Below, piece after piece: positions 2,719 to 36,918 of a stretch of 46,501 nucleotides of DNA (positions are counted from its first letter, which is position 1; each line of letters opens with the position of its first letter). Below the pieces are notes generated by a model that ran no database searches, was not told the DNA's origin, and saw nothing but the letters and a program-made list of their open reading frames with translations. Source of the stretch: a virus (taxonomy: Duplodnaviria; Heunggongvirae; Uroviricota; Caudoviricetes). The stretch is taken from the IMG/VR virus record IMGVR_UViG_2711768023_000006, one strand, 5' to 3'. The position numbers and the translations under genes were made by a program.

Positions 2719-2900
2719 TATAACCAGGTGAATCATTTGATACCGACAAGGGGTTTAGTGAAAGGAGGTGAAATCACCTGTAAGATACTGAAATAAAACA
2801 GGTGATGGCTAGATGTGCGGATAAGGTCTATTTGATACCGATTGTGCAATAATTAGTCATTTATTATAAAATCGGCAACTCATTTGATACTGTGGTTTTA
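2719..2900 (+). promoter_or_regulatory. Prophage left end (attL) with three transposase-binding-like repeats
   Basis: TTTGATACCG at 2736-2745 and 2831-2840, variant TTTGATACTG at 2883-2892; same motif inverted three times at the right end. Confidence 0.6.
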
Positions 2901-2964
2901 GTCTTTTAAGGCGTTCCAAACAATGCGAAATACTCGATATAGTGCAAAATGCGGGCTAATGCTA

Positions 2965-3510
2965 TTAACCCGCTTTTGGTTCTACCGCGTTAGATTTGCG
3001 ACTTCTCTCAGTTTCTTCCAAAATCTCTCTGACGCGTTCGTCAGACATACCTTCAAGCTGTAATGCAGCTATTCTTTTCCTTCCTTCTAAGCGGATTAGA
3101 TCTTGATTTTCAGGCTCTAACAACCGAGCTAAGTACTTGGCTCCATTCAGAACCAAATTTTTCGATAGCTGCTCTAAGTCTTTTTCATCAAGTGCGCTGA
3201 TAATCGTCATAATTATCTTCTTGCTTTCATCTTGATTTTCCTTGATCTCACACCGATTCACTTGTGATGCATCACTGAATCCACATAGCCACTCAACACT
3301 TACTCCTTCGATAGACGCAATCTGAAGGGCGACACTTAAGGATGGCTCAGTGCCACGAGACAGATAATTGTTTAGTGTTGAAAATGAAAGCCCCCAATCT
3401 CTTGCTGCAGCTCTGACGCTGCGGGAGCCAATCAGCCTTTTCAGACGCTCAGCAATGCTTTCTTTTCTACCACCAGGAAAAGAAAGAGATGTTGTTGTTT
3501 GCTTGTTCAT
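2965..3510 (-). CDS. Putative prophage repressor (Mu c-like position, HTH protein)
   Basis: 181-aa HTH protein transcribed divergently from ner/A/B at the left end, as for Mu repressor. Confidence 0.6.
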   Translation of the reverse strand: MNKQTTTSLSFPGGRKESIAERLKRLIGSRSVRAAARDWGLSFSTLNNYLSRGTEPSLSVALQIASIEGVSVEWLCGFSDASQVNRCEIKENQDESKKIIMTIISALDEKDLEQLSKNLVLNGAKYLARLLEPENQDLIRLEGRKRIAALQLEGMSDERVREILEETERSRKSNAVEPKAG

Positions 3511-7805: not shown

Positions 7806-8074
7806 GTAAAGTCGTACGCATTATTTTCGAATACAAGGAAGATGTTATCTGCAAAAACTCTGATGGCAGCACGCACAGAGGGGTAAGTCTGGATATACGT
7901 TCAACCGGAATAAAGAAGAAAGATAATGGACCCGCCATGATTTTTGGGGTGGTTATGCTGGCAGAAAGCAGAAACTTCGCAGAGTTTGTGGCAATGAAAG
8001 CCAGTGCATTCATGAAAGACAGAGGCATGGCTTCCGGGGTTATTAACGGTAATGAATTTAATCAACAGGGGTAA
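7802..8074 (+). CDS. hypothetical early protein (paralogue A)
   Basis: MSKVVRIIFEYKEDV...; N-terminus paralogous to next gene. Confidence 0.45.
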   Translation: MSKVVRIIFEYKEDVICKNSDGSTHRGVSLDIRSTGIKKKDNGPAMIFGVVMLAESRNFAEFVAMKASAFMKDRGMASGVINGNEFNQQG

Positions 8075-8078
8075 TTCC

Positions 8079-8372
8079 ATGAGCAAAGTACGCGTTATTT
8101 TTGAATTTAATCATGTTTCGCATGACGAAAAGTTGGCAGGCAATGACTGTGTTGAAGTGCATGAAAAGATTGGAGTGGATGTGAAAACAGAACGTGATAC
8201 GGATAACAGGCCGACGTCACTCTGTGACGTTTATGCAAGTATTCTCCAGTATCACAGTCCTGCAATTATTCAGTTTCTCTCAGCGGAATTTCAGGCATCT
8301 GCACAGTCTTTTGGAGCGGATGCCATCATTAAACGCCACCGCGTGCATAAAGCATCAGGCACACTGCAATAA
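8079..8372 (+). CDS. hypothetical early protein (paralogue B)
   Basis: MSKVRVIFEFNHV...; ATG at 8079 with RBS AGGGG. Confidence 0.45.
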   Translation: MSKVRVIFEFNHVSHDEKLAGNDCVEVHEKIGVDVKTERDTDNRPTSLCDVYASILQYHSPAIIQFLSAEFQASAQSFGADAIIKRHRVHKASGTLQ

Positions 8373-10663: not shown

Positions 10664-10992
10664 TAACGACCTTATTTGTTGAATCAGATGAACCTCTTGT
10701 GTGTGCCGCCGGAATGCCGCTCTGTGGCGGAACGCTGACCGGCGTTTATTTCGGGGATTTGCGCGGTTATCCCTGGCATTCACTGGATGACGCATTTCCG
10801 CCTGATATGGAGGCTGTCGTGCTGATTGTTCAGTATGGTGACCAACAGGAACTGCGCATCGGCCATATGGGGTATGAAGGCTTTTTTATTGATGAAGAAA
10901 CCGGAGCCTGCCTTGAAGATGAGGACGGACAGGTGACGCACTGGTGCCATCTTTCGGCCTTGCCGGAATTACAGGGGATACATAATGGATGA
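10660..10992 (+). CDS. hypothetical protein
   Basis: 110-aa acidic ORF, overlapping coupling with neighbours. Confidence 0.4.
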   Translation: MITTLFVESDEPLVCAAGMPLCGGTLTGVYFGDLRGYPWHSLDDAFPPDMEAVVLIVQYGDQQELRIGHMGYEGFFIDEETGACLEDEDGQVTHWCHLSALPELQGIHNG

Positions 10993-11128
10993 GCAAATTG
11001 TTGAATGTCCCACCTGTGGAAATGAGGACCCGGAGTATCTGAAAGAGTGCCCACATTGTGGTGAGATAAAATGTAACCACTGCGATATGGGCGACGACAC
11101 TGCATGTATAAATTGTGAGGATGAATAA
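10985..11128 (+). CDS. small zinc-ribbon protein (47 aa, four CxxC motifs)
   Basis: MDEQIVECPTCGNEDPEYLKECPHCGEIKCNHCDMGDDTACINCEDE*; below the ORF-track size cut-off, fills gap between flanking genes. Confidence 0.5.
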   Translation: MDEQIVECPTCGNEDPEYLKECPHCGEIKCNHCDMGDDTACINCEDE

Positions 11129-11129
11129 T

Positions 11130-11417
11130 ATGGAAAAAGAAATCAAATTTGCGCCTAAATCTATCGACGAAGAACTGGCTAAAATCGGCATGCTTGAACG
11201 TATGCGGGACATTATCGAATATGCGATAAAAGAAAATCTTGCAGCCAGAGAAGCCCTTTTGATAATGGAGCGGGAGATTAACCTGATTAAGGATGCTGTA
11301 TCTCTGGATAATAAAATAGCCCGCGAGGAATACGTTCGCCGTAGGCTCGGTGTTGATGGTTCAGCAATTCTTACATCTGAACATTATGCAAAAATTTTTA
11401 ATCTTTTTCAGCGGTAA
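11130..11417 (+). CDS. hypothetical protein
   Basis: ATG at 11130 with RBS GAGGA; coiled-coil-like sequence. Confidence 0.45.
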   Translation: MEKEIKFAPKSIDEELAKIGMLERMRDIIEYAIKENLAAREALLIMEREINLIKDAVSLDNKIAREEYVRRRLGVDGSAILTSEHYAKIFNLFQR

Positions 11418-11637
11418 TCCCCATACAGGCCCGGAGATTGTCGAAATGCCAGTCGGTATTAATATATGAGCCATCCTGGATATCTTCTGCATTTTCCGGG
11501 GTAGAGTTTTTTTGAGCGAGATTGATAATATGTATTGCCTCCTCACGGGAAATCAGCCCCTTATCGAACAGGGTTACCATAAGATTTCCAGCCATTGTGA
11601 ATGCGGCAACATCAAGTGCATTTTTTATATCTGACAT
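11398..11637 (-). CDS. hypothetical protein encoded antisense to the early operon
   Basis: 79-aa ORF with RBS AAGGA 6 nt upstream of ATG on minus strand; no plus-strand ORF covers 11418-11707. Confidence 0.45.
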   Translation of the reverse strand: MSDIKNALDVAAFTMAGNLMVTLFDKGLISREEAIHIINLAQKNSTPENAEDIQDGSYINTDWHFDNLRACMGITAEKD

Positions 11638-11665
11638 AGATTTTTCCTTTTATGTTAATTGACAT

Positions 11666-11693
11666 GGCGGTGCGGTAACACCGCCCATTTTTT
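11666..11693 (+). terminator. Rho-independent terminator-like hairpin
   Basis: GGCGGTG-CGGTAA-CACCGCC followed by ATTTTTTAT. Confidence 0.5.
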
Positions 11694-11707
11694 ATGGAGC
11701 CACGATA

Positions 11708-12281
11708 ATGAATCGCGCTTCCCTGATTACCTTAATACATGTCGCAAAACGCGATCTACAGCTTGACCATGATACCTATACATCCGCGCTGCTGGCAGCC
11801 ACCGGCAAATCCAGTTGCCGTGATATGTCACCCGGTGAGTTATCCCGCGTGCTGGATGTTTTCAAAAAACGCGGTTTTAAAGTGCGTCAGAAGCCGGTTA
11901 ACCGGGCCTTAAAACCGGGTACGGTGACCGCCAAAATTCGCGCCATCTGGAAAGTGATGCACCGGCAGGGATTTATCTCTGATGGCGGGGAAACGGCCCT
12001 TAACCGCTGGGTGAAATCGCAGACGGCCGCGCNNNNNNNNNNNNNNNNNNNNNNNNNNNNNNNNNNNNNNNNNNNNNNNNNNNNNNNNNNNNNNNNNNNN
12101 NNNNNNNNNNNNNNNNNNNNNNNNNNNNNNNNNNNNNNNNCCCGCGCTGGCCTCTGATGTGCTGGAGCGTCTCAAACGCTGGCACCGCCGCAAAATGCTG
12201 GCAGCCCTGGATATGTCGGAACGTGCAGTGATGAGTTATGAGCGTGTTTGCAGGCTGTATGAAAAATCATTCCCCCGTTAA
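11708..12281 (+). CDS. gemA: GemA/gp16-like protein (interrupted by 108-N assembly gap)
   Basis: MNRASLITLIHVAKRDLQLD... N-terminus; C-terminal frame after the gap ends at 12279-12281; true length unknown. Confidence 0.55.
12033..12140. other. Assembly gap (108 N)
   Basis: Run of n characters inside gemA. Confidence 0.99.
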
Positions 12282-12285
12282 CCCC

Positions 12286-12317
12286 AAATCCCGCCACAGC
12301 GCGGGATTTTTATTTTA
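12286..12317 (+). terminator. Rho-independent terminator after gemA
   Basis: Perfect 9-bp stem AAATCCCGC/GCGGGATTT, 6-nt loop, then TTATTTT. Confidence 0.7.
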
Positions 12318-12351
12318 AACTTGCCCTGTGTAATGATGACCGGAGGCGGGT

Positions 12352-12774
12352 ATGGCTGAAACACAGATGAGCATGTTTGGTGACAGCGAACAGCTGCACG
12401 CGCTGATTGACCGTCTGGATGATATTCCTGATGATGAGCTGAAAAAGAACTGGCCCGGCACGCTGCGGGACCTGGTTGATGTGATCAGTGCTGAACTGCA
12501 CCGTCAGGGGATTGAACCTGCTCAGGCGGGAATGCTTGCCCGTAAGGTTGCAGCCGCACAGGCCGGGTACATGGGCGGGCGTGGTTATTATCTCCCGGTC
12601 GGTGAATCCCTTTTCACCGAACTGCGCAATAATGAAATTTTTTCCCGCTGGAGCCAGGGCGAAAAAATTGAAACCCTGCGCCGCCACTACCAGATGTCAG
12701 AGACGCAGATTTACTCCGTTATCCGCAACCAGCGTCGCCTGCATCAGGAACGCACGCAGCCACGGCTTTTCTGA
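12352..12774 (+). CDS. Mor/C-family late transcription activator
   Basis: 140 aa; C-terminal HTH ...ETLRRHYQMSETQIYSVIRNQRR resembles Mu Mor/C; sits between gemA and lysis genes. Confidence 0.7.
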   Translation: MAETQMSMFGDSEQLHALIDRLDDIPDDELKKNWPGTLRDLVDVISAELHRQGIEPAQAGMLARKVAAAQAGYMGGRGYYLPVGESLFTELRNNEIFSRWSQGEKIETLRRHYQMSETQIYSVIRNQRRLHQERTQPRLF

Positions 12775-12845: not shown

Positions 12846-13346
12846 ATGCCAAAACTCCCCGCACCCCTGCGTAAAAAGCTGATTGCCCTTGTTCTGGCCG
12901 GAGCCGGGACGTTCACCATTGCCACGCACTACACCGGCTACTGGGAAGGGAAAGAAAACACCACGTACATTGATCCCACCGGCACCCCCACCATCTGTTA
13001 CGGCCATACCGGCCCGGATGTGAAACCGGGGATGACAAAAACTGATGAAGAGTGTCTGGAGCTGCTGGAAAAGGACATGAAATGGGCCTTTGCGGCTATC
13101 GATCGTCATGTTCAGGTGCCGCTTACCCGTGGTCAGACGGTGGCGCTGGCCTCCTGGATTTTCTGGGCCGGTGAAACGAACTTTCGCAACTCCACGCTCC
13201 TGCGCCTTATCAATGCCGGGCAGATGCCCGCGTCCTGTAAGCAGTATATCCGCTGGATTTATTCAAAGGGGGTAAAACTCCCCGGTCTTGAGGCCCGCCG
13301 TTCGGCGGATGAATGGTTATGTCGTTACGATTTGCCGAAAGTCTGA
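12846..13346 (+). CDS. lys: Endolysin, T4-lysozyme-like (GH24), probable SAR type
   Basis: N-terminal hydrophobic stretch LIALVLAGAGTFTIA then catalytic E-8aa-D-5aa-T motif (YWEGKENTTYIDPTGTPT). Confidence 0.8.
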   Translation: MPKLPAPLRKKLIALVLAGAGTFTIATHYTGYWEGKENTTYIDPTGTPTICYGHTGPDVKPGMTKTDEECLELLEKDMKWAFAAIDRHVQVPLTRGQTVALASWIFWAGETNFRNSTLLRLINAGQMPASCKQYIRWIYSKGVKLPGLEARRSADEWLCRYDLPKV

Positions 13347-35310: not shown

Positions 35311-35336
35311 AGAAGGCCTTCCGGCCTTCTTTATTA
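35311..35336. terminator. Bidirectional terminator hairpin between S and convergent U'
   Basis: AGAAGGCC-TTCC-GGCCTTCT followed by TTATT; overlaps U' stop. Confidence 0.6.
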
Positions 35337-35855
35337 CTGTGGCTGCTCAGGCCATTTAATGGCGTTAAATTCAGCTTCTGTTTTAATGGCGGGTAGTTCC
35401 ATTTTCTTCACCTGACTGATGTATGCCATCCATTGGGTAAGTGCTGCTCTGTCTTCATCGCTGATGGTGCCCAGTTGTAGCTCCGTTCTCCAGTCATTAA
35501 TTTTTTCATATGCCTGATTAAGATATGACTGGCGCATTGCTTCCAGTTTTCTTGCGTAGTTAACCGGAATACGGGAGATTATGCCATTATCAAACTTCCA
35601 GTTTCCTGAAATATCCGTGCCTTCAGGGAGTTCATCGACCTCAACCACAGAAAACCCCGCAGGATACAGCGCCGAGGCGTCCTGTGATATTGAGCAGATA
35701 ACGCCGCTGTCAGGTGTTATGCAAAGTTTATATTTTTTGGTGAATAATGGCAGGGATTCGTAGAAATCCTTACCATCTTCACTCTGGAAATACTGAACAT
35801 TATTACCATATGGCATATTTTCAGGATAATAACGGGTTATATTTTTTAGTTCCAT
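35334..35855 (-). CDS. Tail fibre assembly protein (U'/Tfa) in the currently silent orientation
   Basis: 173-aa protein on minus strand inside invertible segment, RBS GGAGG, directly downstream of alternative fibre tip. Confidence 0.7.
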   Translation of the reverse strand: MELKNITRYYPENMPYGNNVQYFQSEDGKDFYESLPLFTKKYKLCITPDSGVICSISQDASALYPAGFSVVEVDELPEGTDISGNWKFDNGIISRIPVNYARKLEAMRQSYLNQAYEKINDWRTELQLGTISDEDRAALTQWMAYISQVKKMELPAIKTEAEFNAIKWPEQPQ

Positions 35856-36345: not shown

Positions 36346-36918
36346 ATGCTGATTGGGTATATCAGGGTGTCAACAAATGACCAGAATACGGCGCTACAAA
36401 GAAATGCGCTGGAATGTGCAGGATGTGAGCTGTTTTTCGAAGACAGAATAAGCGGTAAGACAAGGGAGCGTCCCGGACTTAAACGCGCATTAAAGCGACT
36501 CCGGCCAGGGGATACCCTGCTGGTCTGGAAACTGGATCGCCTTGGACGCAGTATGCAGCACCTTGTCCTTTTAACAGAAGAACTCCGGCAACGCGGCGTT
36601 AACTTCCGCAGCATTACGGACAATATTGATACATCCACTCCCATGGGACGTTTCTTTTTCCATATAATGGGCGCGCTGGCGGAAATGGAGCGGGAACTCA
36701 TTATTGAACGTACACGCGCGGGTCTTGCTGCTGCCCGTGCTCAGGGGCGTCATGGCGGCAGACCTCAGAAACTGACAGAGAAAGAGCGGGAGCAAATCGC
36801 CCGTTTGCTGGCTAATGGCGAGTCCCGTAAACAAATCGCACTGATATTTGATATTGGCCTTTCCACCCTTTATCGTTATTTTCCTGCCTCACCAGCTCCG
36901 TCACCAAAAGTACCGTGA
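36346..36918 (+). CDS. gin: Serine recombinase, DNA invertase Gin/Hin/Pin family
   Basis: MLIGYIRVSTNDQNTALQRNALECAGCE...GDTLLVWKLDRLGRSMQHL...MGRFFFHIMGALAEMERELIIERT, near-identical motifs to Gin. Confidence 0.95.
   Translation: MLIGYIRVSTNDQNTALQRNALECAGCELFFEDRISGKTRERPGLKRALKRLRPGDTLLVWKLDRLGRSMQHLVLLTEELRQRGVNFRSITDNIDTSTPMGRFFFHIMGALAEMERELIIERTRAGLAAARAQGRHGGRPQKLTEKEREQIARLLANGESRKQIALIFDIGLSTLYRYFPASPAPSPKVP

Follow-up and report, generated by a model that had tools for sequence, protein, structure and literature searches.

The DNA analyzed in this study, referred to as the window, is a stretch of 46,501 nucleotides (nt) available as IMG/VR virus record IMGVR_UViG_2711768023_000006 (Caudoviricetes). 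The window is a Mu-like transposable prophage, in which the gene of a minus-strand helix-turn-helix (HTH) repressor is followed by plus-strand genes for MuA, MuB, Gam, GemA, a Mor-family activator and lysozyme. Directly upstream of gemA, an open reading frame (ORF) of 79 codons lies on the minus strand at 11398–11637. Profile matches place its product in the family of gp15 (Mup15) from phage Mu. Our overall reading of the locus, to which the comparative sequence data lend an even chance, is that this gene would be one half of a gp14-gp15 cassette, that it would be transcribed independently of the early promoter Pe and opposed by transcription from Pe, and that a hairpin before gemA would serve as an attenuator.

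Identity of the minus-strand gene

The ORF begins with ATG and is preceded by the Shine-Dalgarno (SD) sequence AAGGAA on the minus strand (plus-strand TTCCTT, 11644–11649), 7 nt from the start codon. SD-like elements were also found at the equivalent site in Mu, D108 and contigs L029, L032, L033 and L036. The predicted protein matched phrog_32893 over its full length (E = 1.3e-45). In complete Escherichia coli genomes it is annotated by the Prokaryotic Genome Annotation Pipeline as WP_001280088.1, a hypothetical protein. At least 1000 contigs of E. coli and Shigella carry the identical protein, named hypothetical protein every time, and the window DNA of the gp15 locus was present in 14 of 5426 complete genomes. 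Six gp15 alleles with DNA differences of no more than 12.5% were compared. The ratios of nonsynonymous to synonymous substitution rates (dN/dS) of the informative pairs ranged from 0.17 to 0.36, and the substitutions were concentrated at the third codon positions of the minus frame. The sign of the GC skew reverses over the gp15 gene. A preliminary description of the window, made from the sequence alone, had reported a 79-residue minus-strand gene with a good ribosome-binding site (RBS), converging with a 20-nt overlap on the plus-strand gene at 11130–11417. The profile match, the dN/dS values and the reversal of the GC skew show that this gene is genuine and under purifying selection, and all coordinates of that description were correct.

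Five of the 10 close database homologs (P0005 and P0007–P0010) shift frame after residue 43–52, and the alternative frame is open for about 45 codons. These frameshifts are at two or more sites; the window region concerned is 11361–11546 (minus strand), with an A7 run at 11509–11515. Sequencing errors, decay or phase-variable loss of the C-terminal half could account for them.

In the RefSeq record NC_000929, Mup15/gp15 of Mu (NP_050619.1) is encoded on the minus strand at 7896–8162 and consists of 88 amino acid residues. When compared with PHROGs, Mu gp15 matched phrog_8747 (7e-60) and phrog_32893 (5.9e-4), and the ORF of D108 matched phrog_38610 (8e-83) and phrog_32893 (5.4e-7). The window protein matched the D108 ORF in BLASTP (2e-6), and pairwise BLASTP gave no significant match between the window protein and Mu gp15. 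The link between Mu gp15 and the window protein thus comes from the profile matches, not from pairwise BLASTP. When 1.84 billion representative proteins were searched exhaustively with a profile of the family, only about 22 small proteins of 60 to 119 amino acid residues were found, and all three types (phrog_32893, phrog_8747 and phrog_38610) were recovered. Common to the family is the N-terminal motif (F/Y)D-x-A-(A/G)-F-x-x-(A/S)-G-N-(L/I)-x-x-x-L-x-x-K-G-x-(I/L)-x-x-x-(E/D)-A, which in the window protein reads DVAAFTMAGNLMVTLFDKGLIS..EA..II. The window protein also contains the C-terminal motif DWHFDNLRA, and WHLDNL-type motifs were found in many members of the family alignment. Given this conservation of the C-terminal motif, the 79-residue frame is the functional one.

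The position of the gene is also shared. Mu, D108 and SfMu all have a minus-strand ORF at the equivalent place in the gp14-gemA interval, and the same arrangement was found for SfMu_16, Mu_3F6 and Tongde as well as in Klebsiella and other Mu-like prophages. The divergent gap between the ATG of gp15 and that of gemA is 70 base pairs (bp) in the window (11638–11707), 70 bp in Mu and 69 bp in D108. No stretch of the whole family alignment was conserved enough for a search with a back-translated pattern, and GemA-anchored loci were used for the survey of gp15 loci instead.

The gp14-gp15 cassette and the variable slot before gemA

The gene that overlaps the gp15 gene tail to tail by 20 nt encodes, on the plus strand at 11130–11417, a gp14 homolog of 95 amino acid residues (phrog_6075). 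We surveyed 80 viral contigs gathered through GemA alone. Both gp14 and gp15 were found in 32 of them, gp14 only in 1, gp15 only in 0 and neither in 47. The single contig with only gp14 is a gp15 deletion. In all 32 gp15-bearing contigs, gp15 was on the minus strand, and the ORFs of annotated length began about 70 nt from the gemA ATG. All 9 partner genes belonged to a single gp14 family: gp14 of the window matched 7 of the 8 other partner genes in phmmer searches, with E values from 7e-34 to 3e-11, and the eighth (L035) was tied to the family via Mu, L029 and L032–L034. Each of the 8 distant gp15 homologs that were looked up is encoded on the opposite strand of a Mu-like early region and converges on a gene of about 100 codons. 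Six of them are directly divergent from GemA, and in the other two (L033 and L034) one to four genes intervene. The pattern holds even over gp15 subtypes that can no longer be aligned as DNA. Thus, the constant co-occurrence of gp14 and gp15 indicates a single cassette. The gp14 gene, regarded in the preliminary description as simply the last plus-strand early gene, belongs with gp15 and is inherited with it. Together the two genes are one dispensable accessory tail-to-tail cassette, and the gp15 family is confined to Mu-like transposable phages, in which it always faces against the early operon.

Across related Mu-like phages, the gp15 gene was conserved at its position, yet it was missing from many relatives. 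In Yersinia phage vB_YpM_3, a plaque-forming isolate, and in contig L099, gp15 was cleanly deleted, apparently between short TGAT repeats, and gp14, the hairpin and gemA were kept. Because vB_YpM_3 forms plaques, gp15 is not needed for plaque formation. In 47 of the 80 contigs, the gp14-gp15 pair was missing or replaced. For instance, L038-type contigs, whose GemA is 100% identical to that of the window type, carry a different convergent pair in the slot, and in other Mu-like phages the plus-strand genes continue straight into gemA. The slot just 5' of gemA is therefore variable, and it contains the gp14-gp15 cassette, a convergent pair of the DUF2513 type, or nothing.

The minus-strand gene of the latter pair is DUF2513-like and encodes 134 to 151 amino acid residues (phrog_585). 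It was found in L006 (2019–2474), L038, L052, L070 and L081. Similar to gp15, it is arranged tail to tail with its own plus-strand partner, which encodes about 100 residues with the motif LIAGGMP and overlaps it by 30 to 38 nt. This partner also occurs alone in other contigs.

The hairpin upstream of gemA

In the window, a terminator scan identified on the plus strand, at 11666–11693, the hairpin GGCGGTG-cggtaa-CACCGCC (11666–11685) followed by CATTTTTT. On the operon strand, this is a 7-bp stem with six GC pairs, a 6-nt loop and a U6 tract, which together have the stem-loop and U-tract of an intrinsic (Rho-independent) terminator. The stem ends 22 nt 5' of the gemA ATG. A plus-strand terminator hairpin just before gemA had been noted in the preliminary description, and the scan and the covariation described below bear out a real and conserved structure. 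No Rfam match was found at the gathering threshold in the whole window, nor at E ≤ 1 in 11200–11900.

In every gp15-bearing locus that was scanned, a GC-rich stem-loop ends 16 to 22 nt 5' of the gemA ATG. Such a stem-loop was also found in several DUF2513 loci and in the gp15-deleted loci. In L033 and L034, which have other genes before gemA, an equivalent GC-rich hairpin precedes the next plus-strand gene. The stems varied, including GGCGGTG/CACCGCC, GGCGGCT/AGCCGCC, GGCGGCG/TGCCGCC, GGCCGCGC/GCGTGGCC and GGTGGCGG/CCGCCGCC. In an alignment of 19 distinct sequences with five alignable pairs, all 95 of 95 cells were paired. Both sides changed in three of the five pairs, the covariation score was reached in none of 500 shuffles, and controls in which the alignment was slid collapsed. 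Moreover, four cells were G.U pairs, whose minus-strand counterparts would be A.C. As the G.U pairs fit the plus strand only, the hairpin structure is selected in plus-strand RNA.

The sequences around gemA fall into two lineages, one with Mu and D108 and one with the window, the latter including Citrobacter L006 as well as L038/L040, L049 and L119. GemA of Mu, D108, SfMu and their relatives is 181 to 184 amino acid residues long, whereas that of the window lineage is 170 to 172 residues long. The gene of the Mor family overlaps gemA by 4 nt in the Mu lineage and is about 70 nt away from it in the window lineage. No terminator follows gemA in the Mu/D108 lineage, whereas a canonical one was found in every window-lineage locus examined. 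Similarly, the tail of the hairpin is T-poor (CCCTTTCC) in the Mu lineage and T-rich (4 to 7 T in 8 positions) in the window lineage. An exception is L077, which is on the Mu side and has a T-rich tail.

In the window itself, the terminator after gemA is AAATCCCGC-cacag-GCGGGATTT followed by TTATTTT. It was found by the terminator scan on the plus strand at 12286–12309, between gemA and the Mor-family gene. Thus gemA of the window is bracketed by two terminator-like structures. On the far side of the second one are the sole Mor/C-family gene (12352–12774) and, directly after it, the lysozyme gene (12846–13346). The cascade of the window type seems to be simpler than that of Mu, with one activator.

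Predicted properties of gp15

The gp15 of the window has a net charge of −7, and that of the D108 type has a net charge of −15. An AlphaFold (AF2) model built with 18 family members had a mean predicted local distance difference test (pLDDT) score of 77 and contained helices at residues 2–25, 31–44 and 62–71. The hydropathy profile showed a hydrophobic stretch of about 15 residues, which is below the threshold for a membrane helix. We therefore predict gp15 to be a small, acidic, soluble, three-helix protein. A reading as a membrane protein or a type I toxin was rejected in view of this short stretch, of internal charges within it in some members and of the strong acidity.

For gp15 (window, Mu and D108 types) and gp14, searches of Pfam, NCBIfam and PADLOC yielded no significant match. 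Nor did Pfam, PDB profile and fold searches reveal an HTH or any other DNA-binding fold in gp15. Among the PDB profiles, the N-terminal domain of T4 MotA matched gp15 (E about 0.1) and the coiled coil of KIF9 matched gp14 (0.0015); both were rejected as chance or coiled-coil noise. A search of the literature on Mu gp15, Mup15, the gem operon and antisense transcription turned up no study of function. Given that gp15 is small, acidic and helical and has no DNA-binding, membrane or catalytic signature, it most likely works by binding another protein, of which gp14 or a host factor is the best candidate.

Expression of gp15 and a proposed model

No minus-strand terminator-like site was found in 10900–12400, and the gp15 gene runs into gp14. 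As there is no terminator between the convergent genes, transcription from Pe would oppose that of gp15 after induction. In our model, gp15 would not be made from Pe; its leftward transcription would start either within the 70 bp that separate the two divergent genes or within the 5' part of gemA. Production of gp15 could then take place in the lysogen, while Pe is repressed. Once the prophage is induced, transcription from Pe would cross the entire gp15 gene in the antisense direction and suppress gp15. The protein would bind a partner, either gp14 or a host factor. The hairpin with its U-tract, together with the second terminator, would set gemA off as a separately controlled unit.

Additional observations were made on the region between gp15 and gemA. 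In the revised Mu GenBank record AF083977 (L001), a "semi-early promoter" for gemA is annotated at the equivalent gp15-gemA interval. Candidates resembling sigma-70 promoters were found at a conserved position upstream of gp15 in L034 and L035 (scores of about 9), and a weaker one in L033 (5.0). In the same three contigs, an inverted repeat CTCCTGTTA-N22-24-TAACAGGAG lies over the RBS of gp15 (L033, 2906–3000; L034, 2886–3000; L035, 1502–1650) and overlaps the promoter-like sequence, whose −10 element ends 34 to 36 nt before the ATG. The repeat may serve as an operator or may sequester the RBS, and in either case expression would be regulated. A near-palindrome of the window, ATGTTAATTGACAT at 11652–11665, was dropped from consideration, as by eye it was not conserved in D108 or Mu.

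Several results weigh against the model. Sigma-70 scans of the window found only weak leftward matches, no more than in shuffled sequence, and the best leftward candidate, CTGCCA-18-TATCAT, is 131 nt upstream of gp15 and inside gemA. With a z-score of −1.1, the stability of the 56-nt hairpin context is unremarkable. The hairpins of Mu and D108 have no U-tract, so that termination cannot be the universal role of the hairpin. Moreover, efficient termination before gemA would demand another promoter for the downstream Mor-family activator, and none was identified. Fold and sequence searches with gp15 gave no informative match and no functional handle, and the case for an interaction between gp14 and gp15 consists of their co-inheritance, counted in contigs that are phylogenetically non-independent. 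Finally, the 3' overlap of gp14 and gp15 ranges from 4 to 98 nt across loci and thus may not itself be functional.

The model could be carried further. The gp14-gp15 pair might be an undescribed two-component module of transposable phages in which gp14 would be an early lytic effector made from Pe and would be neutralized in the lysogen by gp15, its convergently encoded partner made while Pe is off; convergent transcription would shut gp15 off on induction, and the hairpin would insulate gemA from this collision zone. We regard this extension as unlikely. If it were true, the orientation of the two genes would form the basis of a switch of the effector-antidote or immunity-like kind, and gp15 might also neutralize the gp14 of a relative.

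Alternative explanations

The hairpin might not be a terminator at all, and might instead act on the stability or translation of gemA mRNA, for instance as the 5'-terminal stem-loop of a transcript that begins a short way upstream or as a barrier to 3' processing. We give this explanation some credence, as a possible one. The hairpin stands at a fixed distance from the SD and ATG of gemA, within the 16–22 nt given above, the hairpin is kept where it has no U-tract (Mu and D108) and where gp15 is deleted, and the annotated promoter feature of Mu stops 5 nt past it. In the window lineage, however, the succession of stem and T-rich tail and the canonical terminator after gemA fit transcriptional insulation, and the two roles are not mutually exclusive. 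From these sequence features, the pre-gemA hairpin most likely attenuates early transcription in the window lineage. An effect on the stability or translation of the gemA mRNA is a serious alternative, and in Mu it is the more likely role.

The preliminary description had proposed that the opposite-strand gene is an acquired moron, such as a superinfection-exclusion or host-interaction factor. As a lone acquired gene expressed from the prophage, gp15 seems improbable to us. Part of the proposal was supported by our results. The gene is accessory and lies, in reversed orientation, in a variable slot; the genes that flank it adjoin each other in relatives such as vB_YpM_3 and L099, and DUF2513-like genes occur in the slot as alternatives. 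The GC content is also lower, being 0.41–0.42 across 11040–11760 and 0.49–0.55 in the flanks. In addition, opposite-strand exclusion genes have been documented in Pseudomonas transposable phages (PMC9936078). A lone acquisition, however, does not fit a homolog of Mu gp15 that was never found without gp14 and is old and syntenic across genera, nor a gene that is not followed by a terminator and lacks a clear promoter of its own. Most exclusion proteins carry a transmembrane segment or a signal sequence. Neither was found in gp15, and there was no match to a known defense family in PADLOC and no fold match, which argues against the proposed role as a superinfection-exclusion factor.

Another explanation, which we consider quite doubtful, is that gp15 regulates the adjacent gemA (and mor) unit at the 70-bp divergent region, for example as an autoregulator or anti-activator. 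The constant spacing of 69–70 bp in the window, Mu and D108 and the semi-early promoter of the Mu record within this interval are in line with it, and a passage in PMC3820752 cites constitutive expression of the gem operon in lysogens. However, L033 and L034 have other genes between gp15 and gemA, most gemA-bearing Mu-like phages have no gp15, and vB_YpM_3 forms plaques with gp15 cleanly deleted and the hairpin and gemA intact. The failure of the searches to find an HTH or other DNA-binding fold in gp15 also speaks against this explanation.

The last alternative concerns the strand of gene 15, for which the two public Mu records (RefSeq and revised GenBank) conflict. In a Mu left-end record of the 1980s, gp15 is a longer putative ORF. 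In the D108 record GQ357916, the gp14-gemA interval is empty and the 119-residue minus-strand ORF located there is unannotated. In AF083977, gp15, whose frame is at 2869–3135 on the minus strand, was replaced by Mu_54, a plus-strand ORF of 55 residues at 2933–3100. As Mu-type alleles are at least 97.7% identical, dN/dS within them could not separate gp15 from Mu_54, and the comparison was made on divergent homologs. That the coding information lies on the plus strand, as Mu_54 implies, and that the minus-strand ORF is not a gene, is hardly credible: the Mu_54 frame is open too in the divergent homolog L118, but it is broken by a stop in L119, the other divergent Mu-type homolog, it has no PHROG family and it shares third codon positions with gp15, which favors spurious openness; the plus-strand ORF of equivalent phase in the window can start only at a TTG and bears no relation to Mu_54; and the minus frame is intact in all subtypes, with a protein conserved at about 66% DNA identity and dN/dS below 0.4. 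The comparative sequence data thus favor the minus-strand annotation of Mu gene 15.

Neighboring features of the window

The gemA gene is at 11708–12281 on the plus strand (Pfam GemA, 8.7e-22), and its SD sequence GGAG is at 11697–11700 within the gp15-gemA divergent region. The gene is interrupted by a run of 107 N at 12034–12140. In NZ_AP022815, the intact allele encodes 170 amino acid residues, and the annotation of L004 reads "gp16 family protein". Of the 513 nt in the intact allele, 467 are present in the flanks of the run, which thus takes the place of about 46 nt. The run resembles an assembly gap or a mask that does not preserve length.

Upstream of gp14, the gp13 homolog at 10985–11128 encodes 47 amino acid residues with the pattern CxxC...CxxC...CxxC...CxxC and resembles a zinc-ribbon early protein, with weak Pfam zinc-ribbon matches and a match to phrog_5584. 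The low-GC stretch with gp14 and gp15 begins at this gene. The other site of the prophage with opposite-strand genes is at 35334–35855, where a minus-strand gene for tail-fiber assembly adjoins the plus-strand gene of a Gin-type serine invertase (36346–36918). This segment is the expected invertible host-range region of Mu-like phages.

Comparison with known systems

The closest relatives of the window gene are gp15 of Mu, SfMu_16 and the homologs of Tongde and Mu_3F6, which likewise lie between gp14 and gemA in the opposite orientation and overlap gp14 tail to tail. Similar to the window, Mu has a divergent gap of about 70 bp and a hairpin before gemA, and its gp15 has an N-terminal domain that is homologous at the profile level. 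The C-terminal half of Mu gp15 is different, whereas the window type contains the WHxDNL motif in common with Klebsiella-type homologs. Mu also differs from the window in that its hairpin lacks a U-tract and its gemA overlaps mor.

Morons, as described by Hendrix, are extra genes of temperate phages, such as lom, bor and rexAB of lambda. The window gene resembles them in being dispensable, in occupying a variable slot among collinear relatives, in its lower GC content and in an orientation that permits expression independent of the lytic operon. Different from morons, however, the unit in the window is a convergent cassette of two genes, of which the gp14 half is read from the early operon, and it has no terminator of its own.

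In the Pseudomonas transposable phage Fc02, olg1/sie1 and gene 10 overlap on opposite strands; the lysogen expresses one of them, and the early lytic promoter drives the other (PMC9936078). Similar to the window, these are overlapping opposite-strand genes in the early/immunity region of a Mu-like phage. The Fc02 locus differs in being located by the repressor and ner, in its unrelated proteins and in its extensive overlap, and in the experimental demonstration of exclusion (PMC9936078).

The window hairpin has the GC-rich stem and U-tract of Rho-independent terminators, including the terminator of the Mu early operon after mor that is annotated in AF083977 and GQ357916. It differs from them in its location inside the operon, where the gene of the essential activator of the Mor family lies downstream and a start codon follows after only 22 nt.

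The gp15 locus does not reveal a new class of system, and the gp15 family had already been annotated. What the analysis adds is the gp14-gp15 cassette, the alternative cassettes of the slot and the structural selection on the pre-gemA hairpin. To our knowledge, gene 15 of Mu, a model phage, has had no assigned function since the left end was sequenced. For the "semi-essential" region of Mu, the comparison provides hypotheses, which are mutual silencing by convergent transcription, an interaction of gp14 with gp15, and attenuation before gemA.

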